A stretch of DNA of 63,880 nucleotides, from IMG/VR virus record IMGVR_UViG_3300022833_000010, positions 1 through 63,880 of that record. One strand, 5' to 3'. The position numbers were made by a program, and so were the translations under genes. Under the pieces are notes generated by a model. The model was not told the DNA's origin. It was given only the letters and a program-made list of their open reading frames with translations, and did no database searches. The DNA comes from a virus. Lineage: Duplodnaviria; Caudoviricetes. Below are positions 1,055 to 47,162 of the stretch, piece after piece. Positions within the stretch are counted from its first letter, which is position 1, and each line of letters begins with the position of its first letter.

Positions 1055-1074
1055 ATCATTATTTGCGGGTATTT
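1055..1074 (-). promoter_or_regulatory. Phage RNAP promoter, class M/L, copy 1 (AAATACCCGCAAATAATGAT)
   Basis: Perfect 20-bp repeat with 5 intergenic copies, all co-oriented with genes; this copy precedes the packaging/late genes. Confidence 0.8.
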
Positions 1075-6254: not shown

Positions 6255-6491
6255 TCATTTAGAATTACCTGTTACTGACATTAAGCTTGATTTTACAATA
6301 TTAATAAGGATTAAAAAACCCCAAGATTTCCAAAAAGTAATTTCAGGAAGCGTAAACATACCTACAATAACTGAATTCCAAAGCAACATAAAAATCCAAG
6401 CGATTAAGGCACTAATTGCTAAACTGGCGACGAGCGCACCAACAACCATGCCAGCAGAAGAAGTGAAAGTGGTTTTATTTGATTTATACAT
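6255..6491 (-). CDS. Small membrane protein
   Basis: Hydrophobic; LWN..I..MF.LPEITFW motif; start revised to MYKSN. Confidence 0.6.
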   Translation of the reverse strand: MYKSNKTTFTSSAGMVVGALVASLAISALIAWIFMLLWNSVIVGMFTLPEITFWKSWGFLILINIVKSSLMSVTGNSK

Positions 6492-7110
6492 TTGTTTTAT
6501 TCTCCACAAGAACGTTTTGATAGGGGTTTACAATTTCATCGATGATGTTAAACTTCAAGGCTTCTTCAGCATTAAGCCAAACATCAGTAGGACATAGTAG
6601 ATTTTTACGAATCTTTTTTACAGACATTCCTGTAAAGATACGGTAGTGTTCTTCCATCCAAGAAGAAGTATGCTCAAAGCTCCGCATAGAACCGTAGATT
6701 TCATGTTCTTTACCGATTACTCCTCCTGAGTATTGGTGAGACATGATCTTAGCGGTAATAGAAGCTGATCGGTTTTTACCAGCCATTAGGACAACAGTGG
6801 CACAGGAAGCTGCAAGGCCCGTACAAAAGGTATCTACAGGGATACTAGACATTAACATTGTGTCAACGAGACTCAGACAAGAATCTACACGACCACCGGG
6901 GCTGTTAATAATAAGGGTGATTCTTTCTGGTTGAAGTTCCTTTTCCATTAAGTTATACTCAAGAATGTCTTGTATTACTGGGAAGATACTTTCAGGTTTA
7001 AAAGGTTGAGCGATCATAAGAATACCGCTTTTAAACAAATACTCGCCTGACTTTTGAAGAACAGGTTTTTCTTCTACTTTTGATTTAATCTTTTTAGATT
7101 TTTTAGTCAT
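6484..7110 (-). CDS. clpP: ClpP-family serine protease
   Basis: LIINSPGG, GLAASCA (Ser), IMSHQ (His), DVWLNAEEAL (Asp). Confidence 0.9.
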   Translation of the reverse strand: MTKKSKKIKSKVEEKPVLQKSGEYLFKSGILMIAQPFKPESIFPVIQDILEYNLMEKELQPERITLIINSPGGRVDSCLSLVDTMLMSSIPVDTFCTGLAASCATVVLMAGKNRSASITAKIMSHQYSGGVIGKEHEIYGSMRSFEHTSSWMEEHYRIFTGMSVKKIRKNLLCPTDVWLNAEEALKFNIIDEIVNPYQNVLVENKTNV

Positions 7111-7779: not shown

Positions 7780-7791
7780 TATAGTATTCCT

Positions 7792-14123: not shown

Positions 14124-14143
14124 ATCATTATTTGCGGGTATTT
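14124..14143 (-). promoter_or_regulatory. Phage RNAP promoter, class M/L, copy 2
   Basis: Perfect AAATACCCGCAAATAATGAT upstream of exonuclease and primase genes. Confidence 0.8.
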
Positions 14144-15421: not shown

Positions 15422-15423
15422 TT

Positions 15424-21224: not shown

Positions 21225-21584
21225 TCAGGTGTGTAGTTTTTTCCAATTCACTTCTCCAGTTTTTACTAAGTCTCTTAGCATAGCTGCGGCTTCTAACGAA
21301 GTAGCTCCCCAAGCCCAGTCATTATCAGAATTTGGTTCTCCAATTTTTGATGCTGTTTCTGAATCTAGCTCAAAGTGGTTTTCAATAGCTAAATCATAAT
21401 GAGTACCTGAGTATGGGTATAGATACCTAATGTGTCCACCAATACAGGCAGCTGTTCCACAAGAATGTGAATCAACAGGGAGATCACGTTCCATGTCAAA
21501 CCCTAGAAGAAGGTTTCTTTTATTTTCTAGATCGTTTAAGTTTTCAAGGTATTCGGCAAACTCAATAATATTTTCAACGTTCAT
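21225..21584 (-). CDS. Hypothetical protein, CGTAACIGGH family
   Basis: Paralog of 2927-3301. Confidence 0.7.
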   Translation of the reverse strand: MNVENIIEFAEYLENLNDLENKRNLLLGFDMERDLPVDSHSCGTAACIGGHIRYLYPYSGTHYDLAIENHFELDSETASKIGEPNSDNDWAWGATSLEAAAMLRDLVKTGEVNWKKLHT

Positions 21585-23325: not shown

Positions 23326-23877
23326 TTAAAAGTTTATGTCGTCGTCAAGATCGTCGTTTTTACCCGATACCATGTCGTCGTCGGCATCGTGATTATCTTC
23401 AATCTTGTTAACCTTATATTCAGTAGGTGCGAAACCACCGTCCATAGGTTTTGGAGTGTATTCATTATGAAGTGTAACTTGGATACCCATTAACATGGAT
23501 GCCCGACCTTCTTTATTATTTACTTTATAATCATATTGAAAAATTGACAGATTGCCACGAGAACCATTACCAATTGTTTTTGGGTCAATAGGTGAAAGAT
23601 CACCAGCAACCACATTAACAGGTTTAGTATTAGTACCATCTGCCTTCTTAGATCGCTTTTTCAAGTTAACACGATAAAACACACCGTCATCGTTATCGTC
23701 TGTAGTTACACGAAGATCTTTTGCTTTCCAATCTTTAGCAACTGCCTTGTCTTTAGTTCGGATTTGAATCTCCCAAGTAGGGCGATCTTTATCAAAGCGA
23801 GAGTTAGGGCGTTCAGGGTCCAGTTTAGCAAAGTAAATTTCTACGTCCATAAGTACGATTGTTGCGTTATCAGTCAT
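23326..23877 (-). CDS. Single-stranded DNA-binding protein (T7 gp2.5-like)
   Basis: IGNGSRGN, GIQV, acidic tail ending in F; start revised to MTDNAT. Confidence 0.8.
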   Translation of the reverse strand: MTDNATIVLMDVEIYFAKLDPERPNSRFDKDRPTWEIQIRTKDKAVAKDWKAKDLRVTTDDNDDGVFYRVNLKKRSKKADGTNTKPVNVVAGDLSPIDPKTIGNGSRGNLSIFQYDYKVNNKEGRASMLMGIQVTLHNEYTPKPMDGGFAPTEYKVNKIEDNHDADDDMVSGKNDDLDDDINF

Positions 23878-23936
23878 GTTATTTCTTCCTAATAGGTTTT
23901 GTGTTTGGATTATGTGATCGGAATTGAACACTTATA

Positions 23937-23956
23937 ATCATTATTTGCGGGTATTT
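23937..23956 (-). promoter_or_regulatory. Phage RNAP promoter, class M/L, copy 3
   Basis: Perfect 20-mer upstream of ssb; first copy downstream of the stand-alone RNAP gene. Confidence 0.8.
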
Positions 23957-24214
23957 TTATTCCTTGTAATCAAGGTACTTTTGGTATTGCTCGTCAGTAA
24001 TTTCTACTAAATAGTCTCCGTAATCTTCCTCGTAAAGCTCTGAATAAAATTCAGTTTCATCTTTTGAAACCATAGTACACACTCCTTCGAAACCTTTTTC
24101 TCCTAGAAGTACTCCTATCACTTTGGCTTCGTTAACTTCATCTTCATAGTGTATTTTTACATAAACATTTTTTTCAAGCAAAAGCGAAATCTGATTCAAT
24201 GACTTTAGAAACAT
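23957..24214 (-). CDS. Hypothetical acidic protein
   Basis: ORF track; overlaps the RNAP 3' end. Confidence 0.5.
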   Translation of the reverse strand: MFLKSLNQISLLLEKNVYVKIHYEDEVNEAKVIGVLLGEKGFEGVCTMVSKDETEFYSELYEEDYGDYLVEITDEQYQKYLDYKE

Positions 24215-26510
24215 CTAAGTTTCCTTTCTCTGGGATTAAATGTAGAGCGTCCATCTGACTAAAGATATGCTCTAAGGGTTCTTGTTCGTAAAGTTCAACG
24301 AACTTGTATCTAACATTCATAAACAAGTGGTTCATGTTACCAGCATGGCAACCGAAAGAGTCGTGTACAACTGTAACTTGATAATCAGAATCGTGTACAA
24401 CCATAGTTACGTGAACAGCATCAACACTGTGTACAACATTTGGAGCAGTTGATTGCTTTTGTTTAACTTTGTTTAGTTCTTCTGTTTTCCTTAAACTTAC
24501 ACTAATACGGTACATAGTTTCACCGCGATACAGCTCTACCTGTTTTGTCTTAGTCTCTACATAGAGTTGTACCATAGGGAAGCCTGTGATAACCTGATCA
24601 TAAGATACATGCTTCCCTTTTTGATTTTCAGATACACCGAGCTTCTCAAACATTTCTAACATGTCTGATGGTCCTTTTAGTTCTTTCTTACAAGTGCTGT
24701 AGATTAAGTGGCCTAAGAAAACCGACCAAGAGTAGTCCTTATCACGCAAGTAATCAGAAAGACCACGAGTGTCGTCTTCTACCATATCTACCATACCGTG
24801 TTGAGTACCGCCATAACCGAGTGTCATAACGGGTCTTTTTACACCTTTACGCCAGATTTTACGGTCTTTTACGTTATGCCAAAAAACAGCACCCATTTGT
24901 TTCTTTAAGTCGTAAGTTTGGTTTTTGTATTCTCTTAAGCGAGCTACTGCGTTACGGTAAAGTTCAGAATTACTATTATTACTAAGTTTAGAAATTTCTA
25001 ACTTTAAACTTACTAACGTTTTGAAAACCTTATCAAACTGGTCTGATACTTTCTTTGGTGTCTCTTTTGCTTTTTCAGCAACTACTTCAATTACCTTATC
25101 TGCAATAAACATGTAGACATCCCCCGGAAGTTCTTGAGGTACTAAGTTTACAAGCGGAGCTACATTTTCATCCTTAGACATGGCAGCTAGGTGCTGAACG
25201 CCGTTATTGCTACCGTCGATGTAGATCGGCAGGTTAGAGGGGAAGTCCTCTATGTCTAAGCCTTTGTCGTTTACCCAGACGTTTATTAGAGAAAGTTCGT
25301 AACAGCAAGCCAAGAAGCACAAAGGTTTGTCCGCGTCCATCCAACCATCATTCTCAAGAGGATCTTCTACATAACTTAAATACGTGGACCAGTTTTCTAT
25401 TACAAACTCTGAGCGATCAGCTAGAGTAACTTTGTCGTTACCTAGCATGTTAGCGGTGTGAACTGTGAGCCAGAACATACCATCTTCACCTAGCGTTACA
25501 CTTTCATCTAACAAGAGTAAACCTTTTGCGTTGTCAGAAGATTGTTCGTGCAAGAAGGCAGTGTTAGGATAAATTCTACCGCGAAAGTCGCAGTTGTACA
25601 AGTGGTAGAAAGGATCAAACTGATTTCTTTCTGCTAACCTTTCAATAGCAGCAAGTTCAATTAACAAAGAAGCCTTCTTTTCTGGATCAACTTCTTTCAT
25701 AGCCTTAAAAGGTGTTTTACCTTGGTGTGTCTTTGCCTTCTTAAACACATCGAAAATAAAAGGATTGATCCTCCAACCTACATCACCTAGCTTATTTAAG
25801 GCTTTTACGACGTAATCCATTTGACCTTGTTTTACTTTCTTGATTGCGTCTTGATGAGGTTTTTTCTTGATAATCGGAAAACCAGTGTTGTGAAAGAACT
25901 TTCCACTTTCCCAGTGATCTGGTTTACTACGCATTGGAAATAACTCAACACTATCAATGTCGATTGTTTCCATAATAGAATGAAGTGCTTCAATGTTTTT
26001 TACATTTACATGGTAAGAAGTGTGCTTTTTCTTTCGACCTCCTTTGTTACTACCTACTTTTAAACGTAATGACAGTATCTCTAAATCGAGATAAGCTTGA
26101 AACAAAAACCATGCAAGATGCACTTCTTTGATTTCTACTTTGTTTGATTCTTCTTCTAGTTTTAACTTGCAGTTAGGCAGACCTAGTTTATTGTGAGTTC
26201 CAATAAAGAACCTTAGTTCTTTTAGTTCTGTGTTATCATCATTAACACTTTCTCGCTCAAGCACCTTTACTTTTTTACGTAAGTTCCTAAACATAGCACC
26301 CCCAACGCTTGATAAGGTGTTAGCTAACTCACTTTGCCTTTCTAAGTTTGTAAGAACATGTCCGTAGGTTAGAGTGATGAGTTCTTCTGGATCAAACTGA
26401 TAAAGGATCCAAGCTTTGTTTCTCGTATCTACCTCACTTGATTTGTTTGTTTTCATTAATTGGAGTTGTTGTTGTGTGAGGTTTTCACAGAGCAGCCCCA
26501 TAGTGTTCAT
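24174..26510 (-). CDS. Single-subunit T7-like DNA-directed RNA polymerase (stand-alone)
   Basis: DFRGRIY, IDGSNNGVQHL (motif A), RKGVKRPVMTLGYG (B), PNVVHSVDA, VHDSFG (C), C-terminal FAFA. Confidence 0.97.
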   Translation of the reverse strand: MNTMGLLCENLTQQQLQLMKTNKSSEVDTRNKAWILYQFDPEELITLTYGHVLTNLERQSELANTLSSVGGAMFRNLRKKVKVLERESVNDDNTELKELRFFIGTHNKLGLPNCKLKLEEESNKVEIKEVHLAWFLFQAYLDLEILSLRLKVGSNKGGRKKKHTSYHVNVKNIEALHSIMETIDIDSVELFPMRSKPDHWESGKFFHNTGFPIIKKKPHQDAIKKVKQGQMDYVVKALNKLGDVGWRINPFIFDVFKKAKTHQGKTPFKAMKEVDPEKKASLLIELAAIERLAERNQFDPFYHLYNCDFRGRIYPNTAFLHEQSSDNAKGLLLLDESVTLGEDGMFWLTVHTANMLGNDKVTLADRSEFVIENWSTYLSYVEDPLENDGWMDADKPLCFLACCYELSLINVWVNDKGLDIEDFPSNLPIYIDGSNNGVQHLAAMSKDENVAPLVNLVPQELPGDVYMFIADKVIEVVAEKAKETPKKVSDQFDKVFKTLVSLKLEISKLSNNSNSELYRNAVARLREYKNQTYDLKKQMGAVFWHNVKDRKIWRKGVKRPVMTLGYGGTQHGMVDMVEDDTRGLSDYLRDKDYSWSVFLGHLIYSTCKKELKGPSDMLEMFEKLGVSENQKGKHVSYDQVITGFPMVQLYVETKTKQVELYRGETMYRISVSLRKTEELNKVKQKQSTAPNVVHSVDAVHVTMVVHDSDYQVTVVHDSFGCHAGNMNHLFMNVRYKFVELYEQEPLEHIFSQMDALHLIPEKGNLDVSKVIESDFAFA

Positions 26511-26663: not shown

Positions 26664-26721
26664 AAAAAAAAATTGTTTATAACTCCCCCGCCACCACTCC
26701 GAAGAGCAGCAGCGAGGGGTT
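26664..26721 (-). terminator. Terminator ending the early region
   Basis: CCCTCGCTGCTGCTC-TTCG-GAGTGGTGGCGGGGG (15 bp, several G-U), then a U9 tract about 10 nt downstream. Confidence 0.75.
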
Positions 26722-26732
26722 TTGTTTTATGA

Positions 26733-27433: not shown

Positions 27434-27447
27434 TTCATTATAGAGGG
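27434..27447 (-). promoter_or_regulatory. Class E (early) promoter-like motif, copy 1
   Basis: CCCTCTATAATGAA, intergenic, ~20 nt before ATG. Confidence 0.65.
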
Positions 27448-28049: not shown

Positions 28050-28439
28050 TTATTTGTAAAAGATGTGAGTTCCGACAATAGCTACAATATCATAGCTAGA
28101 AGTCCAGTATGGGCTAACGTAGTCTGCGTGATACATAATAGCGCCGGAAGAAGGCATGTCAATGTTTCCTGATACGTATCCTTCAACAACAGCTTGAGAG
28201 TGTTCCCAAGCTAACTGATCGAGATAAGACATACGTGTTGGGTCGTCATGTTTACCGTCATTTGTCCAAGAGAATTGAGAGTCTTGGAAAACAACAGCAC
28301 ACACTTTGTCTGGGTATTTGTTAGAGACTACTCGGTTCATTGTTACTTCTATGACTGCGAGTTGGCCCATTAAAGGTTCGTTTCTTGCTTCAAAGAACAC
28401 ATTTAAAGAAAGACATAGTGCTGCTGCTGCGGTAATCAT
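28050..28439 (-). CDS. SleB/CwlJ-like cell wall hydrolase (Hydrolase_2)
   Basis: CL..NVFFEARNE...GQ.AV..V..NRV, QFSW, YHADYV.PYW, HIFY. Confidence 0.9.
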   Translation of the reverse strand: MITAAAALCLSLNVFFEARNEPLMGQLAVIEVTMNRVVSNKYPDKVCAVVFQDSQFSWTNDGKHDDPTRMSYLDQLAWEHSQAVVEGYVSGNIDMPSSGAIMYHADYVSPYWTSSYDIVAIVGTHIFYK

Positions 28440-30020: not shown

Positions 30021-30083
30021 GTTGTTCTCCATTTGGGTTATTTGATGTTTCTTCATTATAGAGGGGCGTTTTTCCCCACTTTT
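30021..30083 (-). promoter_or_regulatory. Class E promoter plus leader/RBS cassette, copy 2
   Basis: AAAAGTGGGG-N8-CCCTCTATAATGAAGAAACATCA...GGAGAACAAC; the 45-bp block is 44/45 identical to 30398-30442. Confidence 0.75.
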
Positions 30084-30397: not shown

Positions 30398-30460
30398 GTT
30401 GTTCTCCATTTGGGTTATATGATGTTTCTTCATTATAGAGGGCCAAAAACCCCCACTTTT
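30398..30460 (-). promoter_or_regulatory. Class E promoter plus leader/RBS cassette, copy 3
   Basis: Same as copy 2, offset 377 bp. Confidence 0.75.
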
Positions 30461-30497: not shown

Positions 30498-30527
30498 AAA
30501 AAAGGCCACCCCAATTAAGGGATGACC
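30498..30527 (-). terminator. Intrinsic terminator ending the late operon
   Basis: GGTCATCCC-TTAATT-GGGGTGGCC-TTTTTT. Confidence 0.85.
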
Positions 30528-30533: not shown

Positions 30534-30884
30534 TTATTTTTTAGCAGGTCTTGGTTTAGGTTTAACTTTCGCTACAGTAGGTTTTTTCTTAGCCCACGAT
30601 TTCCTATTCAAGTTATTTTGAGACCGTGTGGCAGGCTTCAAATTAGAAGCTTTGTTGTCAGAACGATCTCTGTTTTTGTGATCTAGCTCAGTAGTAACTT
30701 TTTTACCAGTTGTCATTTCTTTAACAACACGGTGTACGTAATGAGCTTTTCCGTTTACACGAACGGTCTTATACCCGTCTCCATGACTCGTGCCAGCCTC
30801 GGAACCCGCAGCCTTTCGACCGCGAGCCTCCTTCCAGTATAGTTTTCCATCTTTCTGCTTAAAAAGCTTTTTCCACTTTTGCAT
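30534..30884 (-). CDS. HNH endonuclease
   Basis: VHRVV ... LDHKNRDRSDN...NL..AT.SQN..N. Confidence 0.85.
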   Translation of the reverse strand: MQKWKKLFKQKDGKLYWKEARGRKAAGSEAGTSHGDGYKTVRVNGKAHYVHRVVKEMTTGKKVTTELDHKNRDRSDNKASNLKPATRSQNNLNRKSWAKKKPTVAKVKPKPRPAKK

Positions 30885-37870: not shown

Positions 37871-38989
37871 TTATGTGTGGAAGATTGGCAGAATGCCGAG
37901 GTTCAGTGCGTCCATCTTACGGTCGTAAGAAGCAGCTGCGCCCATTGTTGCGTTGGTTGCGAAAGCAGAAGTCGAACCTGCCCAGTCGTAACCCATTGGG
38001 TGGTTTACATAGCCCCAACGATACCAAACGTTAGTCGAACCGCCACCAGTGTAGGAAGCCGCATTGCGGTCAACTTCAACAGGTGTAGGCATTACGAGTG
38101 CTGTTGCAGCAACCGAACCGGGTTTAATAACAAAAGAACACTGTGTTGATTGTGCGTTCAGGTCGCCGGACGCGAAGCCCGATGCCATTTGGTTAGCACG
38201 TGTCATAACGAGGCGGAACTTGCCACCAAAGATTGTTGAGAACTCAAGGTTCCCATCTTTGATACGGTCTTGGTCAACCAAGTTTGCCGCGCGCATTTCA
38301 GCCATGATTTCTGGGCTTGTTGCCAAGTACATGAAATCTGGTTCGTAGTCTTTGAAAGCTGCGCCAATCGAACGGAACAAACGCTCACCACGAGCAGCGG
38401 CAATACCAGACGCGTCGAAGAGTTTACGTGCGTCGTTAGCACCAGTTGCAGCAGCGCCGTGAAGACCTTCTGCGTTTACGTCAACAAAGAAGCCAGTTGC
38501 GGCTACGTCTGCGTCTGTATCAAAAGCGATCATGCCGCCGTTGCCGGAGCCACCTTTGTCACCGAGAGTAACTTCGCTAAGTGCGACACCTTTGAGAACT
38601 GCCAACAGAGCGTCATGCTCATCTTGGGCGCGGACTTCAGCAAAATCACGGGCAATCTTGGCCAGACCGTCTTGCTTCGAAACAACTTCTTGCATGTTGA
38701 CTTGCTCTGCACCGAAGGTACGAACAGTCTTAACGAAGTTGGCAACGTCTGTTGCAACGCTTGTATAGGTACCATCAGTAGCCGAAGACAAAGACGCAAC
38801 GTTTACTGTGGCGCTCAGTGGCTTGTACCAGCGGAACTGACCAACAAACGATTCACCAGAAACGTCGATCTTTTGATCGGAAGTGACAATGCCTGTACCA
38901 TTCAGCTTTTTAGCAGAGGTATAAGCTTCATCGGAGTAAGCAGAAATTGCGAGTGCAATGTTCTGGAAGTCTGTATTTGTAATAGGCAT
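37871..38989 (-). CDS. Major capsid protein
   Basis: 372 aa after scaffold; strongly biased codon usage; EVDRNA...GGG....WYRWGYV.HP.GY.W. Confidence 0.85.
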   Translation of the reverse strand: MPITNTDFQNIALAISAYSDEAYTSAKKLNGTGIVTSDQKIDVSGESFVGQFRWYKPLSATVNVASLSSATDGTYTSVATDVANFVKTVRTFGAEQVNMQEVVSKQDGLAKIARDFAEVRAQDEHDALLAVLKGVALSEVTLGDKGGSGNGGMIAFDTDADVAATGFFVDVNAEGLHGAAATGANDARKLFDASGIAAARGERLFRSIGAAFKDYEPDFMYLATSPEIMAEMRAANLVDQDRIKDGNLEFSTIFGGKFRLVMTRANQMASGFASGDLNAQSTQCSFVIKPGSVAATALVMPTPVEVDRNAASYTGGGSTNVWYRWGYVNHPMGYDWAGSTSAFATNATMGAAASYDRKMDALNLGILPIFHT

Positions 38990-39024
38990 AGTTTTTTATT
39001 CCTTGGAGTTTTTTAGTCTAATGA

Positions 39025-39732
39025 TTAGACATTAAAGTTACCTAGCTGGCCTTTTGCGGCTTGAGCTAGAATTTCTTGCGTAGACATTTCCATAATGGAC
39101 TTGCTTACATCGGTGTTAATTTTACCGTCATTGTTATTTGTCCCGCCGCCAGTATTAGACTTAGTACGGAACAAGAAAGAGTTGCCTTCTTCTTTTGCAT
39201 AGGCGGCAGTGTAGTCACGAATACTAGTACCGCCAGTGTGTGACCAAGAACCATCTTCGTTTTGAACGAGTTGGTCTACAATCTCACGTCGAGCCATATC
39301 TCTTGACTTATCGTTTCGGAAATCCATTCCTGAGAGTGCATCGTTGAGGACACCGTCCCGTTTGAGTTGTGTAGTTTCAGTAGCGTATTCTGCAAGACGG
39401 GTACGAGCTTCAGATAGCTCAAGTTCGAGTGCTTCTTGTACTTTACCTTCTTCTTTCATACGGGCAATAGTCGCTTCTTTGGCTGCTTTCTCAGCAGTCA
39501 CCTTATCTTTCAAAAGACCATCGCGTTCAGTAGCCATTTTATCCATGTTAGCTTTCATCTTAGCAAGACGTTCTTCAACGATTGCTTCGAGTTCTTCTTC
39601 AGGTGTTTTTGGTGTCTTGTCGCTTTCGTCTTCCTCATCTTTAATTCGTTGCGCTTCAACTTCTGCAGCGAGTCGTTCGACTTCTTTTTCAGCAGCGAGT
39701 TTGTCGTTAGCAGCAATTTCTTCAGGTGTCAT
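39025..39732 (-). CDS. Capsid scaffolding protein
   Basis: Charged coiled coil directly upstream of the capsid gene; LF.....GGG. Confidence 0.8.
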   Translation of the reverse strand: MTPEEIAANDKLAAEKEVERLAAEVEAQRIKDEEDESDKTPKTPEEELEAIVEERLAKMKANMDKMATERDGLLKDKVTAEKAAKEATIARMKEEGKVQEALELELSEARTRLAEYATETTQLKRDGVLNDALSGMDFRNDKSRDMARREIVDQLVQNEDGSWSHTGGTSIRDYTAAYAKEEGNSFLFRTKSNTGGGTNNNDGKINTDVSKSIMEMSTQEILAQAAKGQLGNFNV

Positions 39733-39745
39733 AGTATTTCCTTCT

Positions 39746-39793
39746 CAAGCACAGCTTGGATTAATAATTTGTTATGTTTCGAGTCACAGACTC
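39746..39793 (-). promoter_or_regulatory. Two hairpins with identical loops in the scaffold leader
   Basis: GAGTC-TGT-GACTC (39781-39793) and CAAGC-TGT-GCTTG (39746-39758, abutting the SD). Confidence 0.55.
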
Positions 39794-39836
39794 TTTTGTT
39801 TTTAGTAATTGTACGGGCCTTGCCTATTACAAATAT

Positions 39837-42800
39837 TCAGGGGCCGATGCCGTACCAGTCATTTCCGGGACGGATAGCTTCAACAATTTCAGAAGGAGTA
39901 ATCTTATTAACAGGGTCAATAAGTCCGTCATCTTTTGCGCGTTGTAAGTATAGTTTATAAGTCTTGTTTGAAAGACCAGCCTTGCGCATTGCTGCGAGGG
40001 TTTGTTTAATAGTACCTTGTTCTAGAGCATTTGCATAGATCTGTCTCAAGGCAAATTTAGCGGGAACCGCCTTACCTAAGTTTGTGAAGAAAGCATCGTG
40101 GATAGTTCCAGTTTCCACGTTATTCTTCGCGCCCCATAAGTGAAATTGTCGGACAATTACAGCATCGTTACTGTGATTACCGTTAACACCTAGCCCAATG
40201 GAAGCTTCTTGAATGGACTGTTGGGATGCAAACTTGTCATCCTTACTCGGTGCTTCGTATATGTTGAAGACTTTTTGATCTGTAATTGGATCTTTAAAGT
40301 CTATTCTTACTTGTTCCTTTACACGGTAACGTTGTAACATGGTTTTACCATCGAACGTAACCCAAGGAATATCTACTGATCCCGACTCTTTTACAAAGTC
40401 TTTCGCAATATCTTTCCAGAAGTTAATAAACTTACCAGTAACAGGAACTTCCTTTTCCAACTGACGTGACATAATTGCTGAAATCTTAGCGAATAAACGA
40501 GTACCTACAAGGTCTCCTGTTTCATCGGTTAGCTTCATTAAAAATGTGTGCATGTCTTCGGAGTTCTTCATACCTTCTCTAAACTCTGACCTTGCGGTTT
40601 CATAAAGAGAGTCGGTTATAGAGTTACCTTCTTTCGAGGCAGCTACTACTTGTTTCTTGATGTCTCGTAATTCATCAATACGAGTCCAGTTTTTTCTGTC
40701 CATTTCGAAGCTAATCTTAGCATCGATAGCGGCTTTAAACTTATCAACTTCTTTTGTTGAAATTGCAATCTTACCTTTCTTTGCTAGAACATCGGCAAAC
40801 TTATTAGCTACGTTTGCAGCTTTAGTTGCGTCTCCGGCACCATAAAAGGCAACCATGTTTTGATTCTTGGCAGCTTTCATAAGGTCTGTCCAGTTAAGAT
40901 CGAGATCAGCCAACTCAGGGATAGCTAGAAACTCAGGATCGTCAACTGTACGTTTTGCAATTTCATCATAAAGTCTTTGTTTCTTAGAAGTCTGAAGTAC
41001 ATTAGATAGTTCACCTGCAGCACGATCTCCTGTAGACAAGGAAATGATTTGAGCGCCAGAAGAACTAGCATCATTTTCAATCATCATCTTTGTTTTGTAT
41101 TCAGAGATTAGTTTTAAATCATCAGGTGTCCACTTAGACTTGTCAATTAACATTTTACCACCCATATGTCTATGTATACGGGTGTATTCTAATGCTAGTC
41201 GAGCGAGTTTACCTACTTCTTTTTCTTCAGTAGCTGCTACTAGTGGGTTAGAAAGAAATTCTTTGACTCTTCGATCAGGCTGAGTTGAACTCAACATATA
41301 ATCTCCGATTTTTAACAGGTTGTCTTCTTGCTCTTTAAAGGCATTAAGTCTTCCTTTTAGTGTCAAAGTGTCTAAAGGACTCCCCACCAAGGCACCAATC
41401 TGAACTTGAAGTTCTTCTAAGGCGTCCGCATCAATATTGTAAGCTTTGGCAGTGTTCAAGAAAGGACGTACAGCTTCACCCTTTGTAGGTGTTAGTAGCC
41501 CACGGTGATACACTCGACCACGAAAGTCAATAGAGGCGTCTACAGAGAAAGCTTGGTTACGTTGACGATGATACTTAGCTGTTGCTAAAACACCACGACC
41601 ATCATTACCACGAGACATAAAGAGTTTCTTCCACTCGTTCATATCATCCCACTTTTTAGCTTCACCACGTTTGTCGTTGAAGTAAATAACTCTTTCTGCG
41701 AAGTCAAAATACTCACTATCAACTTCATACTTAACTGAAGTAGCGTGGTTCAACATTGTAGAAATATCTCTGTCAATTTGATTTACATCGTAATCGGCAT
41801 AAACCTTTTCAGAAACAACAGGCATAGTGGTCTTACGGCCTCTGGCATCAAAGTACTCTTTACTTCCAGCCCTAGCATAAATCTTATCTCTAGGATGATA
41901 AATGCCAAAACGTCTAGCTGTTCGTGCTTTTTCAGCAGCAATTTGTAACTGACGCATAGGGCCGTTTACAATAGTAAGTTGCCGAGATACACTAATACCG
42001 CGTAATGCCTTATCACTAACTGGTCTACCTGTTTCTAAGTCAATAGGCGAAGAAGTACCAATATCTCTAAGAGTTGTTGTCCGTATCATTCCTTGCTTCT
42101 CAAGAGAGTTTATAACTCGGCTTCCGTCCTTGTGGAAGTCTTTAAGAGATTTAGAGCGTAACGGGTTCAGAGAACCTAACTCTTTATCAAACATTTGTCC
42201 AATCTTAATAGCAAGAAGATCATAATCGGCACCATCTGCTGTAGCAATAGCTTCCATTGCTTTTGCAGTAGCCTTGATAGTCTTCTCTTTTAAGTTGTCT
42301 AAAGCAAGTTTACGGTCTCTATTGTATAAAAACTCTAAGTCTAGAAATTCTCTAGCTTTGCCTCTAACATTTGAAATCTGCGAAGTGATCCAGCTGTCTG
42401 TTGGAGGTTTTGTTTTAAACAATTCTTTTATGTTTTTGCGTTTTGTTTCACTTACAAACAAATCTAAAAGCTTTTTAACAAGCTCCTTACGATTTGGGTA
42501 CAACTTGATAATTGGTTGAGTGTAAGCTGCTAAAGGCGCTTTACCATTAAAATAAGATTTCTTTGCTAACTTAGCTCCGTACTTACCTCTCCAAGTTTCA
42601 ATATAGCGATTATCTGCAATTTGACTATCTACAAGTTCAGAAATGGTATACTTTTTACCAAACAAAAATACTTCAGGATCATCTGCTAGTTTTGCAGTCA
42701 AGTTCCCAAATAGCTTACCGCGATCTGTTGATCGGTTAAACATTAAAGTACCTAAGTCTTGCACAGCATTGATAGTGAACTTTCTCATTACAGAAGTTGG

Positions 42801-44276
42801 TTTACCCCAAGGCTCACCACTAACGTTAGAACGAGTAAATGTTTGTCGAAGAACGTCAGTAATAACCGATCGTTGATTAATAGAAACGTCTCTGCCTAGA
42901 TCTGAAACAAAGTCTTTAATAAATTTCTTTTGAGCAAGTTCTAAACCTTCGCTATCCTGAACTCTTGCGAGCCTTTCAGTAAGAATGTCTGGTTCTTGTA
43001 CTTGAAGGTGACGACCTGCATTACTTGTGTAGTCTGTACCACTAGCAGACATAACCGAGCCTTCTCGACTGTTCTTAAAAGAACGTCTGCTACCTTGCTT
43101 TTGTGAAAGAGAGTTGCCTTTAAAATCAGTCAAAGCCAAAGCTTGAGCATTTTCTGCTGCGTCATTCTTAAAGTGATCTAGCAAGGCGGATCTATTTGCT
43201 TTAGACTCCATTAGTTCTTTAGGGTTAGAAAATCTTAAAGTCGTATTGCTATCGTTGGTCGAAGTAGGGCGCTTAATAGTTTGATTTGCTCTACGCATTA
43301 ACCCCATAATAGAAAGTGCTTTGCCTTCTGGAGAAACAAACTCTGAAGCTTCTAACTTACCGTCTTGGAATAGTTTAGCTTGACGCTCACCACCTAACAT
43401 TTTAATCTGTACGTTAGATCCTTGTGTACGCAGCCAAGCGGAGTAAGTTCGAATAGCTGGCATTATACCCGTTAGTTCTGAAGGGTGTATTTTTTCTAAG
43501 TTCCTAGGTTTTACGTTAGCTAAAGGAAGACTTAATAGTTCCTCTTGACTCTTGATTACAGGAACCATTGTTGATCGGCACTGCCAGTGCAAAGGAGGTT
43601 TGAACCTCTCGTCACCAATATCATAAACTTTACCGTTGTGATAAGAGCATACAGCGCTTGTTCTACCATCTAGGATCGCAGTAAACATAAACCCACTGAT
43701 CAAGTCAGAGTTTGCAGACATAACGCTATTCAAGGCGTTCGTTTGTGTTGCTGTAATAGAGGTTCTAGTTAAAGTACGTGCCTGATGTTCTGTAATCTTA
43801 GTTGTTTTTAAAACATCATCGATAATTTCATCAGGTGTTAACCCTTTAGCAAGTCCACCTTTTACTTTAGTTTGAATACGGACTAGTTCACCAGAAGCAA
43901 TGTTTTTAACATTACCAGAAAGAGACTTAACACCTTTAATCTGAGGGCCAGTAATCTCAAGGAGAAGGTCTTTAGTCTTTGGTTTTTGAAGTCTATAGAA
44001 GTTTTTCACTTCTGCGTTTAAGTTATTTGTGTGGAAAACAGTCTGGGAGTTGCTAAAGTCTAGCATACTCTTAACGTTGTGATCATTTAATTCTTTAGCA
44101 AAACGAGTTACCTCGGGTTTGACATTAGACCTCAAGTTTCCTTTTAGAAGGTCTCTAAGGTTAAACCTGTGTTTTTTAAGAATTGTATTATTCTTCGCTT
44201 GGACTCCGTTTTCGTATAAACGTACATCACCGCTATGGTCAACAATACGGTCAAAGATCTTTTCGTTAATAGACAT
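39837..44276 (-). CDS. MuF/SPP1 gp7 head morphogenesis domain fused to a T7-like RNA polymerase (putative virion RNAP)
   Basis: N-terminal ARTLTRT, FTAILDGRTSAVC, PPLHWQCRST; C-terminal DFRGRVY, NDASSSGAQI, K-x7-YG (AKNQNMVAFYG), NHSNDA, IHDAF; lies between portal and scaffold. Confidence 0.92.
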   Translation of the reverse strand: MSINEKIFDRIVDHSGDVRLYENGVQAKNNTILKKHRFNLRDLLKGNLRSNVKPEVTRFAKELNDHNVKSMLDFSNSQTVFHTNNLNAEVKNFYRLQKPKTKDLLLEITGPQIKGVKSLSGNVKNIASGELVRIQTKVKGGLAKGLTPDEIIDDVLKTTKITEHQARTLTRTSITATQTNALNSVMSANSDLISGFMFTAILDGRTSAVCSYHNGKVYDIGDERFKPPLHWQCRSTMVPVIKSQEELLSLPLANVKPRNLEKIHPSELTGIMPAIRTYSAWLRTQGSNVQIKMLGGERQAKLFQDGKLEASEFVSPEGKALSIMGLMRRANQTIKRPTSTNDSNTTLRFSNPKELMESKANRSALLDHFKNDAAENAQALALTDFKGNSLSQKQGSRRSFKNSREGSVMSASGTDYTSNAGRHLQVQEPDILTERLARVQDSEGLELAQKKFIKDFVSDLGRDVSINQRSVITDVLRQTFTRSNVSGEPWGKPTSVMRKFTINAVQDLGTLMFNRSTDRGKLFGNLTAKLADDPEVFLFGKKYTISELVDSQIADNRYIETWRGKYGAKLAKKSYFNGKAPLAAYTQPIIKLYPNRKELVKKLLDLFVSETKRKNIKELFKTKPPTDSWITSQISNVRGKAREFLDLEFLYNRDRKLALDNLKEKTIKATAKAMEAIATADGADYDLLAIKIGQMFDKELGSLNPLRSKSLKDFHKDGSRVINSLEKQGMIRTTTLRDIGTSSPIDLETGRPVSDKALRGISVSRQLTIVNGPMRQLQIAAEKARTARRFGIYHPRDKIYARAGSKEYFDARGRKTTMPVVSEKVYADYDVNQIDRDISTMLNHATSVKYEVDSEYFDFAERVIYFNDKRGEAKKWDDMNEWKKLFMSRGNDGRGVLATAKYHRQRNQAFSVDASIDFRGRVYHRGLLTPTKGEAVRPFLNTAKAYNIDADALEELQVQIGALVGSPLDTLTLKGRLNAFKEQEDNLLKIGDYMLSSTQPDRRVKEFLSNPLVAATEEKEVGKLARLALEYTRIHRHMGGKMLIDKSKWTPDDLKLISEYKTKMMIENDASSSGAQIISLSTGDRAAGELSNVLQTSKKQRLYDEIAKRTVDDPEFLAIPELADLDLNWTDLMKAAKNQNMVAFYGAGDATKAANVANKFADVLAKKGKIAISTKEVDKFKAAIDAKISFEMDRKNWTRIDELRDIKKQVVAASKEGNSITDSLYETARSEFREGMKNSEDMHTFLMKLTDETGDLVGTRLFAKISAIMSRQLEKEVPVTGKFINFWKDIAKDFVKESGSVDIPWVTFDGKTMLQRYRVKEQVRIDFKDPITDQKVFNIYEAPSKDDKFASQQSIQEASIGLGVNGNHSNDAVIVRQFHLWGAKNNVETGTIHDAFFTNLGKAVPAKFALRQIYANALEQGTIKQTLAAMRKAGLSNKTYKLYLQRAKDDGLIDPVNKITPSEIVEAIRPGNDWYGIGP

Positions 44277-44379
44277 AAGTTTTCCCCATTACTTCATTCG
44301 TGAGATTGATTTATAAGTCTGGACGCCAAACCTCATTGAGGTCGTTTTACAGGCTTTACCTATCCAGCTAGGTTAATAT

Positions 44380-44454
44380 TGGCTCTCTGTCTTGGAATCG
44401 AACCAAGCAACAGCTGATTAACAGTCAGACCGCACACCTTGTGCGCTACAGAGA
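44380..44454 (-). tRNA. tRNA-Asn (GTT)
   Basis: Acceptor TCTCTGT/ACAGAGA, loop CT-GTT-AA, GGTTCGATTCC T-arm, encoded CCA. Confidence 0.85.
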
Positions 44455-44475
44455 ATATTTTATTAATGTAATAAT

Positions 44476-44552
44476 TGGACCGCGCAGTAGGACTCGAACC
44501 TACAACCTAGACTGTAGAAGAATCTTGCTCTATCCATTTGAGCTATGCGCGG
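44476..44552 (-). tRNA. tRNA-Arg (TCT)
   Basis: Full cloverleaf CCGCGCA/TGCGCGG, D-loop GGATA, loop CT-TCT-AC, CCA. Confidence 0.9.
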
Positions 44553-44556
44553 TTAG

Positions 44557-44632
44557 TGGTTCTGCAACGAAGGTTCGAACTCCGGACATCTTCATTACAA
44601 GTGAAGTACTCTACCAACTGAGTTATTGCAGC
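44557..44632 (-). tRNA. tRNA-Thr (TGT)
   Basis: Cloverleaf, loop CT-TGT-AA, CCA; G1-A72 mismatch. Confidence 0.88.
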
Positions 44633-44675
44633 GTAAGACACCCTTGTAAAATTATATCAAGGGTGCCTTTTATTT

Positions 44676-44756
44676 TGGTGTTAGTTATGGAATCGAACCA
44701 AGCTTCTCATTGATGTGACGCCTGTGACATCGTTTGAGACCGCGACCTGCTCTAAC
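44676..44756 (-). ncRNA. tRNA-like RNA lacking canonical D and anticodon arms
   Basis: GTTAG/CTAAC acceptor plus ACCA, GGTTCGATTCC T-loop, long interrupted hairpin in place of an anticodon arm. Confidence 0.55.
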
Positions 44757-46331
44757 TTACATATCTTCCATTGTGACCTGTGATTCCTGTGAGTTAGGAT
44801 TTGCTACTAAAGGATCAGTTTGAATTGACTTTGTAGCTTCTTCATCATTATAGTCAGCTGGAAGAAAATCATTAAACTTAGCAATTGTAACGAAAGTATT
44901 ACGATCAATAACGCCGGACTGATACCACTCAGCTACCAAGCGCATTGCGCCTTCACCACCAACAGTAGCAGCAAAGTCAGAAGAAAGTTGAAACTCAACA
45001 TCATTACCTGTCAAGTCAGTATCATACTTCCAGTTTATCATAAAAGCAATAATCTCTTGCATAGTACCGGAAATCTTAGCGTTAAGAGTACCTAGCTGTG
45101 CAGTTTGAGAAGCGTTACGAATCTCTAAAGCAATACCTGAAGCAGCTTGTTCTGGGGACAACATTCGAATACCCATCTTAGCCATTTCACCAACTGTAGC
45201 TTCGATAGCCCGATCCATGTCTGCAAGCGCACCAGTAGGTGTTTCTAAAACAGTAATAGATTCATCTTTACGAACTCGTAGCCAAGAACCTAGACCTGCA
45301 TCACAGAGCTTGTCAAATTCTTCATCTGTCATATCAGATTGAACAATTGGTGTGTAAGTGGCAGCGCCCATCAAAAGGTGATTACGGCGAGATACTTTAT
45401 TGTAAAGAGCAACTTCTCTGTCAATCAAAGGCATAAGTACAGGCTCTACGGCATCTAGTTGACCATTAAGCGGCCAAGCTGGAATTCGAGTTAATCGTTT
45501 ACCAAACTTCATAGGAAACTTGGTGTCATACTTAGAAAAACCACCATCAGCAGAGTCAGCATATTCTTGAGAAATTTCTCCGTTGAGTGCTTCTACTTGC
45601 TGACCGCCTCCTGATTTTTTGTAATAATCAAGAACTAAAAGACCTTCTTTGTCAAGATAGTGATCACAAACAGTATCAACATAATTAGGGTGCCAAGGGT
45701 TATCAGAATTATATTCTTCAGAAATGTATCTAGTGACTATTCGACTGAGAGTTTTGACTCTTGTAACAGGATGAGTATTTAACTGTACGTTAATGACATT
45801 CTCTGCTTTAATCAAAACAGGATAAGGTGCAATCATGTTTCTAACTTCAGGATCCATGTTTTCTAATTCTTCATCAGATACCGTTGGTCGGTCAACATAA
45901 ACCCAAGCACGAGAAGTTTGAAGCTCTTCCCAAATAGCAGCATCTAAGAAGTTAAACAAAGAAGCACCGTCTAAAGTAATGTCTTTTGTCAACCAGTTTT
46001 TTGCACTATCATCAATAAAATCAGGAAGTTCTAAAGAAGAAGGTTTACGCAGTAATGCGCTAATCAAAACCCTTGCATACTGAGTAGTCAAACCCGGAAG
46101 TTCAGCTTCAGCTTTATAAAAGTCATACTGTGCAGTAGTCATACTTGGAGAGAAGGGTAGAAGCAAGTTACTGTAATCGTGCTTTAGCAAGTCATCATGT
46201 GCTTTAGCATTAGCTTCTCCTTGGAGAATTGCGCGTGCCTTCTTCCAAAGTGGTTTCATAGACAAGTAAGCTGCAGAAGGCGTTTCTACTCCACGTTTAG
46301 TTGTATTAGCTGCTGTTTTAATTAGAGCCAT
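44757..46331 (-). CDS. Portal protein (DUF4055-like)
   Basis: 524 aa; Y..Y.AEA..PG.T, L.LDG.SL..F, RAWVYVD.P, PY...AENVIN. Confidence 0.88.
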   Translation of the reverse strand: MALIKTAANTTKRGVETPSAAYLSMKPLWKKARAILQGEANAKAHDDLLKHDYSNLLLPFSPSMTTAQYDFYKAEAELPGLTTQYARVLISALLRKPSSLELPDFIDDSAKNWLTKDITLDGASLFNFLDAAIWEELQTSRAWVYVDRPTVSDEELENMDPEVRNMIAPYPVLIKAENVINVQLNTHPVTRVKTLSRIVTRYISEEYNSDNPWHPNYVDTVCDHYLDKEGLLVLDYYKKSGGGQQVEALNGEISQEYADSADGGFSKYDTKFPMKFGKRLTRIPAWPLNGQLDAVEPVLMPLIDREVALYNKVSRRNHLLMGAATYTPIVQSDMTDEEFDKLCDAGLGSWLRVRKDESITVLETPTGALADMDRAIEATVGEMAKMGIRMLSPEQAASGIALEIRNASQTAQLGTLNAKISGTMQEIIAFMINWKYDTDLTGNDVEFQLSSDFAATVGGEGAMRLVAEWYQSGVIDRNTFVTIAKFNDFLPADYNDEEATKSIQTDPLVANPNSQESQVTMEDM

Positions 46332-46388
46332 TATTTACCTCATTATCTGGTTAACAGGCAATAAAGCCCTTCTAGTTGTTTTGTTTTG

Positions 46389-46470
46389 TTAAGTATATTT
46401 AAAGACAAACATAATCACTATTATACCTTTAGATATACTTAAACTATATCTTTAGATATACTTAAACTAT
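46389..46470. repeat. AT-rich iteron-like repeats
   Basis: CTTTAGATATACTTAAACTAT at 46427-46447 and 46450-46470; inverted 16-bp copy (1 mismatch) at 46389-46404. Confidence 0.7.
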
Positions 46471-46493
46471 CCCTTTAATTAGGGACACCTACT

Positions 46494-46513
46494 ATCATTA
46501 TTTGCGGGTATTT
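46494..46513 (-). promoter_or_regulatory. Phage RNAP promoter, class M/L, copy 4
   Basis: Perfect 20-mer upstream of the portal. Confidence 0.8.
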
Positions 46514-46625
46514 ATTCTTGATAGAAATAAGGTCGTCAGGGTGAGAATTAACCCACCCTAACTAGATGTATTCCGGTCATCTTGAAGACAGAGAAGCTGT
46601 CAGACTTGAGAGCCTGCTTCACTGT

Positions 46626-46645
46626 ATCATTATTTGCGGGTATTT
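46626..46645 (-). promoter_or_regulatory. Phage RNAP promoter, class M/L, copy 5
   Basis: Perfect 20-mer right after the endolysin stop, 132 bp upstream of copy 4. Confidence 0.8.
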
Positions 46646-46646
46646 A

Positions 46647-47162
46647 TTATTTAGGGATTTCGTAGTGAGGTCCGTCAATAAATGCTCGTCTACCCTGCTG
46701 CCTTTTCATTTCAATATAGGCGTCATGAGACTCTTTACCTGTATGTTCATCAAGGTAGAACGGCCAACCACCACCCCAACGAACACCTAGCTTTGTCTGC
46801 TTACAAGCCTTAGCGAAAGCGTCCGCAATAGTAATGTAGTGTTCAAGATCCCAAGACACCTTACCATTCTCATACGCAACAACGTCAATCGCCATGCCAT
46901 CTTGATGGCGAGAGCGACGAACTTGTGTTTTACCTTGTGCAAGTAACTGGTTTTGTTCGTGTTGAGAACGTAGACCACAAGTAATACCAAAGTCAATAGG
47001 GCTAAGCGGTAAGGCAAGACGTGCAACTTCAATAAGACGTGCATCTACGTCTAGCATTTTCATTTCAGAACGATTACCAAAATGCCAATCATAAGTTTTC
47101 AATTTAGCCTCCTTCTTAGCTTTTACTTCAGGTTTATCCTTAAACATTTTAGTTGTCTTCAT
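46647..47162 (-). CDS. Endolysin, M15 L-Ala-D-Glu peptidase family
   Basis: DFGITCGLRS..EQ, SRH.DG.AID, VRWGG.W, DGPHYE. Confidence 0.9.
   Translation of the reverse strand: MKTTKMFKDKPEVKAKKEAKLKTYDWHFGNRSEMKMLDVDARLIEVARLALPLSPIDFGITCGLRSQHEQNQLLAQGKTQVRRSRHQDGMAIDVVAYENGKVSWDLEHYITIADAFAKACKQTKLGVRWGGGWPFYLDEHTGKESHDAYIEMKRQQGRRAFIDGPHYEIPK

Follow-up and report, generated by a model that had tools for sequence, protein, structure and literature searches.

The 63,880-bp linear viral contig IMGVR_UViG_3300022833_000010 (hereafter the window, which is the whole IMG/VR record and has an estimated completeness of 93%) encodes a 1479-amino acid protein, P0001 (39837..44276, minus strand), in which a MuF domain of the SPP1 gp7 type (approximately residues 1-350) is followed by a helical segment (approximately 350-545) and then by a complete T7-like RNA polymerase (RNAP; approximately 545-1479). 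The gene starts with ATG and has zero internal stops in the list of open reading frames (ORFs) and its translation, and it matches both PF04233 and PF00940 above their cut-offs. An initial annotation, made from the sequence alone, had described a single uninterrupted 1479-amino acid ORF between the portal and scaffold genes, which is what the ORF list and the PHROG matches of the neighbors give; it did not state that the ORF lies on the minus strand. We propose, with confidence just short of even for the proposal taken whole, that in a global group of long-tailed phages, comprising the Naomviridae and many uncultured relatives, a covalently attached MuF domain acts as the tag by which a complete T7-type RNAP is packaged and ejected, that the injected enzyme would read a promoter class of its own, AAAAAGTG-N-CTATAATGA, that the host RNAP would never be needed, and that a second, fast-evolving RNAP would follow.

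The MuF/SPP1-gp7-type head morphogenesis domain (43227..44276, minus strand) is recognized by PF04233 (Phage_Mu_F) over residues 134-237 (E 4.8e-10; 40.6 bits versus a cut-off of 29.6) and by phrog_241, 'head morphogenesis', over residues 1-354 (E 1.2e-49), and PF04233 is matched by 27/27 family members. The MuF motifs that had been reported from the first part of the protein are both found, AILDGRTSAVC at residues 200-210 and PPLHWQCRS at residues 227-235, and across the family they are invariant or nearly so; the invariant residues of the MuF part are T175, N189, L202, D203, T206, C210, P227, P228, H230, C233, R234, S235, and P239. When a model of residues 1-560 (alignment A3; pLDDT 85.7) was compared with BFVD, 76 phage minor-capsid or head-morphogenesis models were matched at E<=0.001, the first being a 1463-amino acid protein and the third a 1192-amino acid MuF-ADP-ribosyltransferase of Xanthomonas phage Xp12, and because the latter stands among the structural matches, enzymes tagged by MuF occur in other lytic phages too. 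The same model gave nothing in the PDB by Foldseek at E<=0.001 (best E>0.4), and the VIA wide search returned only generic helical bundles (best Z 8.6). Because these bundles cover mainly residues 12-188, the 350-545 segment was barely tested by searches with this model, and we claim no new fold for it. This segment (residues ~351-544; 42645..43226, minus strand) has no assigned fold, consists of high-pLDDT helices in both models, and is conserved in all full-length relatives. A predicted complex of the portal with MuF residues 1-360 scored 0.00 in two runs; controls were not folded, and the score speaks neither for nor against binding.

The middle of the protein, about 500 residues of which had been left unassigned in the initial annotation, is now largely accounted for, in that residues ~545-860 form the N-terminal, promoter-binding type domain of the RNAP (41697..42644, minus strand; limits approximate, from the structural alignment to T7 RNAP) and only residues ~350-545 keep that status. 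The thumb, palm, and fingers with the catalytic motifs occupy residues ~861-1479 (39840..41696, minus strand), as judged from PF00940, the family profile, and Foldseek. PF00940 matches residues 1057-1429 (E 7.3e-7; 28.8 bits versus a cut-off of 22) and is found in 22/27 family members, and phrog_414, 'RNA polymerase', matches the fusion with an E of 5.2e-25. An AlphaFold model of residues 340-1479 was built from an alignment of 71 relatives (A2), with a mean pLDDT of 85.4 and a pTM of 0.82; its numbering plus 339 gives the protein residue. VIA-align superimposes residues 209-1138 of this model on residues 42-882 of T7 RNAP (Z 30.5, root-mean-square deviation 3.5 Å, 515 residues aligned), which places the RNAP span at ~545-1478 and shows that the whole T7 fold is present, with the N-terminal domain, thumb, palm, and fingers. 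The corresponding Z scores are 27.6 for yeast mitochondrial RNAP, 17.1 for the N4 mini-vRNAP, 15.9 for N4 RNAPII, and 15.0 for full N4 gp50, and Foldseek with the same model also lists T7 RNAP first (3e2e_A, E 1.4e-19), followed by mitochondrial RNAPs. The family profile matches T7 RNAP in the PDB (E 4.7e-21) in three colinear stretches; the profile was needed for this, since the whole protein, searched alone as one sequence, matched nothing in the PDB at E<=1. Chains of N4 gp50 were not matched by the profile at E<=1. Domain mapping by predicted structure, which had been put forward as a check on the initial annotation, has in this way resolved the MuF part, the helical segment, and the T7-like RNAP.

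Conservation around the active site was read from an alignment (A1) of 27 members spanning the family, whose identities to the window protein range between 77% and 20%. Invariant in 27/27 are R921 (of DxRGR), D1069, K1134, K1137, Y1145, G1146, D1371 (of HxxDA), and D1394, and, within the polymerase part, conservation is highest in the 50-residue blocks with motifs A, B, and C, so that the active site is under strong constraint. The motif A catalytic Asp, D1069 (41070..41072, minus strand), aligns with the Asp of T7 FDGSCSG; motif B is K1134-x2-K1137-x7-Y1145-G1146 (40839..40877, minus strand), with all four residues invariant; and motif C, H1393-D1394 (40095..40100, minus strand), supplies the second catalytic Asp and aligns with T7 IHDSFG. 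We take the T7 equivalents to be D537 and D812 for the catalytic Asp pair, K631, Y639, and G640 for motif B, and R627 for the motif B Arg; the motif B Tyr selects ribonucleotides. All RNAP motifs named in the initial annotation are present (DFRGR at 917-921, D1069, K1137-x7-Y1145-G1146, HSNDA at 1368-1372, and HD at 1393-1394), and the invariance of D1069 and D1394 in the family agrees with its statement that both catalytic Asp residues are kept. With this pattern of conservation, the fused polymerase is apparently catalytically competent, and a real, active polymerase fusion seems to us very probable.

Homing elements typically settle at conserved sites of needed genes, and several relatives carry them in the MuF-RNAP gene. 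In EBPR siphovirus 1 (L084), an HNH endonuclease gene (7190-8042) splits the gene between residues 1142 and 1144, and in L075 a group I intron (13392-13621) lies where the frame closes and the match to P0001 ends, at residue 1141, which is likewise in motif B. An intron in L068 (4021-4250; place in the protein not mapped) has a score identical to that of the L075 intron, and L081 has two further group I introns (3157-3476 and 5039-5259). Many database fragments start or stop at residues ~1142-1146 and at ~1042, the latter just before motif A. The homing elements at motif B provide independent support for a live polymerase.

The fusion is genuine and conserved, and it is not a chimera. Among cultured phages, the only full-length matches in a tblastn search of 50,697 phage records (43.7% identity at 100% cover) are those of the roseophages DSS3_VP1, in two records, and DSS3_PM1, where the orthologue is annotated as 'minor head protein-like' or 'head morphogenesis' only; the same search found EBPR siphovirus 1 as a split form. 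When 16 kb surrounding the gene were compared with the phage collection by megablast, no match was returned. In a collection of 5.8 billion proteins, scoring of 8000 candidates (lengths 813-2589) on residues 800-1479 gave 406 matches at E<=0.001, and among the best 120 matches 98 have both Pfam domains precomputed, 16 have PF04233 only, yet their C-terminal parts match at E<=1e-186, and 6 (817-1180 amino acids) have PF00940 only. An exhaustive search of the 50% representatives with residues 400-1479 gave 125 clusters at E<=0.001, and every match that extends to the query start does so from residue ~390-440 of the matched protein, so these relatives have a MuF-sized N-terminus; the shorter matches look like fragments, and no complete unfused orthologue was seen among the 125 clusters. 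In IMG/VR, at least 513 stretches were confirmed among 600 candidates, and in the 80 loci kept, the match runs from residue 1-3 to 1479 in 50, while the remaining 30 mostly run up against a locus end. The relatives have uninterrupted frames of 1452-1519 amino acids, plus one of 1603 and one of 1821. The search of databases for the combined Phage_Mu_F and RNA_pol architecture, another check proposed at the outset, has therefore turned up a large family carrying both domains. Four independent runs, whose records are labeled as salt lake and marine metagenomes, were placed on the window as contigs, and parts of the window without cover carry no meaning. Contigs of runs X2 and X3 cover 30/30 bins of 39000-47000 and cross the boundary between MuF and linker, and RNA-library contigs cover 27/30 and 25/30 of these bins; being contigs, they are silent on timing and 5' ends. 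An assembly chimera, which the initial annotation had named as a possible refutation, is ruled out by the full-length relatives and by the independent-run contigs.

The long non-nested frames of the window (ORF list, at least 100 amino acids) are all on the minus strand, and the fusion gene lies directly downstream of the portal gene (44757..46331, minus strand; phrog_145, E 3.8e-47) and directly upstream of the scaffold gene (39025..39732, minus strand; phrog_206, E 1.1e-8), which is followed by the major head protein gene (37871..38989, minus strand) and, farther downstream, by the adaptor, tail genes, and a 1294-amino acid tape-measure protein. The position just 3' of the portal is the usual slot of MuF genes. 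It is kept in the relatives, with the portal upstream of the fusion in 66/66 loci in which both genes were found and no more than 500 nucleotides away in 62 of them. The 480-nucleotide gap between portal and fusion is filled in the window by three tRNA genes (Asn-GTT, Arg-TCT, and Thr-TGT; 44380..44632, minus strand; called by ARAGORN, two confirmed by Rfam), and a tRNA-Asn occupies the equivalent position in DSS3_VP1. A candidate ClpP-family head maturation protease (6484..7110, minus strand; PF00574, E 2.7e-31; phrog_94, 'head maturation protease', E 3.6e-33) could cut the fusion in the prohead. The candidate lies far from the head module, and no homologue of it was found in the comparison of the window with DSS3_VP1.

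A second polymerase accompanies the fused one. The standalone, canonical T7-like RNAP P0002 (778 amino acids; 24174..26510, minus strand; phrog_414, E 8.3e-131) ends in SDFAFA as in T7, keeps the motif B Arg, and is ~21% identical to the fused polymerase. Homologues of P0002 occur in DSS3_VP1 and in the records of 4/5 larger relatives, the one without being an estimated 65% complete. With DSS3_VP1, a member of the Naomviridae, the window has 32 ORFs in common in kept order, including the large terminase in two ORFs, PhoH, the portal (50% identity), the fusion (44%), the capsid protein (60%), the standalone RNAP (43%), the DNA polymerase (46%), and the primase-helicase (50%). According to abstracts and section 2.2 of PMC12697855, DSS3_VP1 replaces thymidine by deoxyuridine (dU) in its DNA. 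In the window there is no PF00383 match for a deoxycytidylate (dCMP) deaminase and no blastp homologue of the DSS3_VP1 deaminase, so the fusion would not be tied to dU-DNA; the two-polymerase arrangement would be a property of the phage group and not of dU-DNA, and the window phage, unlike its cultured relatives, may not make dU-DNA. The idea of the fused RNAP as an adaptation to uracil DNA was dropped for the same lack of a PF00383 match or deaminase homologue.

Two classes of promoter-like motifs are present, and they appear to belong to different polymerases. The class-1 20-mer, AAATACCCGCAAATAATGAT, has five exact coding-strand copies in the window versus 0 expected, all on the minus strand: two tandem sites ahead of the operon that runs from the portal through the MuF-RNAP gene to the head and tail genes (46494..46645), one site (23937..23956) ahead of the gene for a Gp2.5-like single-stranded DNA-binding protein (SSB; 23326-23931), one ahead of the exonuclease gene (14124..14143), and one in a long noncoding stretch (760-1225) after a hairpin and T13 run (1055..1074). 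In DSS3_VP1, the homologous SSB gene is preceded by that phage's version of the class-1 site, and the tandem pair ahead of the portal is found also in DSS3_VP1 and in the loci L041, L005, L004, L007, and L009, with an 8-9-nucleotide core that differs and flanks that are conserved (AAATA ... TAATGA or TTATGA). The cores read GGGCGGAAT in L041 and L005, GGGTCCCCT in L004 and the second copy of L007, CTTGACCCT in L009, and GGGTGCGTT in DSS3_VP1, which has seven copies. None of the 83 loci searched contains the class-1 17-mer of the window, because the core diverges while the element itself is kept. In the T7 group of promoters, the specificity region changes along with the polymerase. The equivalent of the specificity loop in P0002 has 16-29% identity versus 45-56% overall (window versus G003, G001, and DSS3_VP1), and the equivalent loop of the fused RNAP has 91-92% identity among L004, L005, and L041, whose class-1 cores differ. 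Because the core and the P0002 loop vary and the fused loop stays, we infer that class 1 is read by the standalone enzyme. A tandem duplication, GATAGTTTAAGTATATCTAAAG then ATATAGTTTAAGTATATCTAAAGG (46420-46470, minus strand), separates the second class-1 site from the portal start, and similar AT-rich repeats are found at the same place in relatives.

Class 2, AAAGTG-N12-17-CTATAAYGA, has two matches in the window versus 0 expected. The first site, AAAGTG-N-CTATAATGA (30430..30459, minus strand), immediately follows the terminator of the tail operon (30504-30527), the second (30053..30082, minus strand) lies inside a cluster of small genes, and a partial third, CCCTCTATAATGA (27435..27447, minus strand), is without the upstream AAAGTG; all three belong to this cluster, which extends from the tape-measure region to the P0002 gene and most of whose genes are unassignable. 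Class 2 occupies the equivalent location in DSS3_VP1 (two full sites and one partial), L005, L013, L020, and G003, always just after the tail-operon terminator and ~9-9.6 kb downstream of the fusion gene, and it is kept across phages with unrelated class-1 cores. The -10 elements of sigma-70 promoters need a final T, and the class-2 copy of G003 reads TATAAC; reading of the printed class-2 sequences finds no -35-like hexamer at usable spacing. Because of these two features and of the conservation across class-1 cores, class 2 seems to fit a conserved phage polymerase better than host sigma-70. A consensus scan for sigma-70 promoters and terminators over 20-36 kb gave counts no different from those of shuffles (37 versus 36.0; 10 versus 9.1) and was used only to place two terminators.

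Some other elements of this region are recorded here as observations. There are two cell-wall hydrolase genes, an endolysin gene (46647-47162, minus strand) beside a holin gene upstream of the portal and a SleB-type gene (28050-28439, minus strand), whose Hydrolase_2 product is conserved in DSS3_VP1 (gp091). Ahead of the P0002 gene stands a GC-rich hairpin followed by 7-12 T (26690-26732, minus strand), found also in G003, G001, and DSS3_VP1 and having a CTTCGG loop in three of these four phages, and the small gene before it encodes a conserved ...NW(V/I/L)K(T/A)... segment. An extended -10-like sequence, TGTTATAAT, ahead of the standalone RNAP gene was set aside as it is not conserved in G003, G001, or DSS3_VP1, and a motif TTGTACGGGC, with three or four copies in both orientations, some in coding sequence, was set aside for showing no clear conservation in relatives. 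The motif ATTGTACGGGC(T/C)TTG is intergenic at 30479 and 29798 (minus strand) and at 39818 and 57679 (opposite orientation), occurs also twice in genes, and shows no clear conservation in relatives.

Put together, these elements suggest the following infection cycle. The domain of SPP1 gp7 brings that protein to the portal and into the capsid. This role of gp7 is treated as background in Iyer 2017. The fusion would be made late, from the portal-to-head operon, driven by class-1 promoters that the standalone RNAP reads, and its MuF domain would, by analogy with SPP1 gp7, bring a few copies into the prohead at the portal. In the next infection, the protein would leave the capsid with the DNA, and the injected RNAP would transcribe from the conserved class-2 promoters without new protein synthesis; these sites head the small-gene cluster just upstream of the P0002 gene. 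The standalone RNAP would then take over the middle and late genes. The likeness to a virion-delivered early transcriptase comes from the combination of a late-made RNAP, a conserved promoter class of its own, and the place of that class at the head of a probable early gene cluster upstream of P0002. What the sequence comparisons show directly is the architecture and fold, the conservation of the active site, the gene position, the size of the family, the second polymerase, and the two motif classes with their co-variation. Virion packaging, ejection, activity, and the assignment of enzymes to motifs are things that we infer, and our confidence in the parts differs: incorporation of the fusion into virions is likely, and for the full model, in which the fusion is injected and reads early genes, the balance tips mildly in favor. 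A two-polymerase program like that of N4, reached by another packaging device, has in our estimate a slightly better than even chance.

Several observations weigh against this model, and they also feed the competing explanations. The motif B Arg is replaced, as the initial annotation had already noticed: the Arg of TRSVTK in the T7 sequence (NC_001604) aligns with M1133 in the window protein, and this position, that of T7 Arg627, is Arg in 0/27 members. Moreover, the conserved C-terminus of the family reads YGIGP versus SDFAFA in T7 and in the standalone RNAP. Both departures, and a Pfam score of a modest 28.8 bits, would suit a polymerase module that is a degenerate and inactive relic, retained in a minor head protein to bind DNA or to provide structure, an explanation that becomes very improbable given that the catalytic Asp pair, the Lys, Tyr, and Gly of motif B, and the Arg of DxRGR are invariant down to 20% identity, that the motif blocks are the best conserved, that the full T7 fold is kept at a Z of 30.5, and that some relatives have homing introns at motif B. 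The residue next to M1133, K1134, is Lys in 27/27 and probably takes over the role of the motif B Arg, since its basic side chain, although displaced by one position, would point to the same side of the helix. As to whether the ORF could be an assembly or gene-calling artefact that joins two genes, the uninterrupted architecture in 50/80 IMG/VR loci and two cultured phages, the contigs of independent runs that cross domain boundaries, and the 1452-1519-amino acid frames of relatives leave this next to no probability, and no observation in its favor was found. On the promoter side, class 2 was not found in the 4.8 kb of G001 examined and is present in 6/95 loci, one of them (L061) with the motif on the opposite strand, the region lying beyond the ends of most loci; the case for which enzyme reads which motif is built on co-variation among a few genomes; and a strong hairpin with a T-run lies between the class-2 cluster and the P0002 gene in all four phages examined, so that read-through would be needed to reach that gene. 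This hairpin could be a terminator gating expression of the standalone RNAP, or something else. Finally, the model has a protein of ~165 kDa pass through a long tail, and we know of no precedent for this in a tape-measure phage.

A perfect TATAAT is present in most copies of class 2, which could serve as promoters for the host RNAP, and the class-2 cluster contains a cell-wall hydrolase gene (28050-28439), which is not a typical early gene. These two points, the location of the fusion gene in the late structural operon, and the presence of a ClpP-type head protease candidate in the genome would be accommodated if the fusion were made late and worked in the producing cell as a late or 'late-late' transcriptase, perhaps first cut from MuF by the head protease, with at most the MuF part staying in the virion and the host RNAP reading the early genes. 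Such an enzyme would have no evident reason to be fused to a portal-associated protein in every full-length member (MuF is matched in 27/27), the phage already has a canonical RNAP for its middle and late genes and, preceding the late operon, promoters for it, and the class-2 sites are without a usable -35 and in one copy read TATAAC, all of which makes an in-cell transcriptase unlikely. A somewhat smaller likelihood goes to a polymerase that is packaged and ejected as in the preferred model and has its main job outside gene expression, in transcription-driven genome entry or in making replication primers. T7 and N4 internalize their DNA by transcription, and T7-type RNAPs prime replication; moreover, all genes of the window lie on one strand, as expected if entry were coupled to transcription. 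The class-2 sites stand ahead of genes and not at an identifiable genome end, which speaks against this use, and it is otherwise compatible with the injected early transcriptase that we prefer.

Outside the regions discussed so far, the window has a number of features that we note for completeness. A group I intron (RF00028, 76.8 bits; 62832-63099, minus strand) interrupts the large terminase gene, the pieces of which match two terminase ORFs of DSS3_VP1 at 69% and 62%, with a 118-amino acid ORF between them; the ORFs of this region are at 62958-63878, 62442-62798, and 61878-62378. A self-splicing intron is mentioned for DSS3_VP1 in PMC8323127. An HNH endonuclease gene follows right after the tape-measure gene (30534-30884, minus strand; phrog_99, E 2e-29), and a SegE-like GIY-YIG endonuclease gene stands beside the exonuclease gene (12911-13408, minus strand; PF19835, E 1.8e-23). 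Among three small genes at 21581-22024, 14144-14533, and 15029-15496 (minus strand), there is a nucleotide-related match of nucleoside 2-deoxyribosyltransferase type (PF05014, 36 bits), and weak MazG-like and SAM-lyase-like matches below cut-offs fall in the same set. At 4205-5739 (plus-strand coordinates), 11 copies of a 72-nucleotide imperfect direct repeat with 61-85% identity lie inside small neighboring ORFs, which share their start regions (repeat families D1, D3, and D14) and look like a cluster of paralogous, repeat-rich small genes. Direct terminal repeats in IMG/VR usually mark a circular assembly, and no inference on physical genome ends was drawn from those recorded for the relative G002.

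To our knowledge, virion-carried RNAPs are found in few phage lineages, and each of these lineages has taught how phages escape dependence on the host. If the model is right, MuF carries a cargo of ~1000 residues through a long tail, transcription in these phages, some of them with dU-DNA, has an explanation for its start, and a new compact single-subunit RNAP with its own promoter becomes available as a possible orthogonal transcription tool. The origin of virion-borne transcription would then be independent of N4, of the phiKZ/AR9 group, and of the crAss-like phages, and the first in a tape-measure phage, and this route of injecting a phage's own transcription enzyme may not have been described before. 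The family is large (125 clusters when grouped at 50% identity; viral contigs in the hundreds), and hundreds of database entries named 'minor head protein' conceal an RNA polymerase. With two of its phages in culture on Ruegeria pomeroyi DSS-3, a model marine bacterium, the family is immediately accessible to bench tests. The initial annotation knew of no characterized example, and we likewise found no published description of a MuF-RNAP fusion in the main-text literature (subscription journals and supplements being outside this scope). In the parts of Iyer 2017 available to us, no RNA polymerase is named among the MuF partners and RNAP modules are treated only in N4-type proteins; 'polymerase' has 0 occurrences in the main text of Jamet 2017; and the main texts of PMC8323127 and PMC12697855 contain none of 'RNA polymerase', 'RNAP', and 'MuF' and no virion proteomics. 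Papers that pair 'Phage_Mu_F' with 'RNA polymerase' do so in unrelated contexts, as in the accessible portion of PMC9769972.

The MuF-RNAP fusion resembles several known systems, each in a part of its organization. DSS3_VP1 and DSS3_PM1 have the same neighbors (portal, tRNA-Asn, scaffold, and capsid) and a separate annotated RNAP, and differ in being dU-DNA phages, according to their abstracts, where the window has no PF00383 match. T7 RNAP shares with the fused enzyme the fold over residues 42-882, the catalytic Asp pair, the Lys, Tyr, and Gly of motif B, and the HxxD and HD motifs. It is a free early or middle enzyme that is not packaged, whereas the fused enzyme has ~545 extra N-terminal residues, a Lys one residue past the Arg627 position, and a YGIGP end in place of FAFA. 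SPP1 gp7 and Mu gpF belong to the same N-terminal family and have the same place after the portal. According to the accessible parts of Iyer 2017 and Jamet 2017, many different effector domains occur in fusion with MuF and are thought to enter along with the DNA; in P0001 the tag carries a 935-amino acid polymerase and not a small toxin or modifying enzyme. N4 gp50 of the Schitoviridae is also a single-subunit RNAP of the T7 superfamily that is encoded among the late genes, carried in the virion, where it serves to read the early promoters of the next infection, and followed by a second phage RNAP, which is the arrangement that we propose for the window phage. With ~3500 amino acids in a short-tailed phage, gp50 differs from the 1479-amino acid, MuF-tagged protein of a phage with a tape-measure protein, and the fused RNAP is nearer to the T7 and mitochondrial enzymes (Z 30.5 and 27.6) than to the N4 mini-vRNAP and gp50 (Z 17.1 and 15.0). 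The N4-type module is described in the accessible parts of Iyer 2017 as confined to N4-like phages and as nearly always joined to a metallopeptidase domain; the Pfam matches of the MuF-RNAP fusion, with a limit of E 1, include no metallopeptidase or other peptidase family. Virion RNAPs and fusions of MuF to cargo domains are thus each already known, and what is new in the window phage and its relatives is the combination of MuF with an RNAP and its proposed use in a tape-measure phage.

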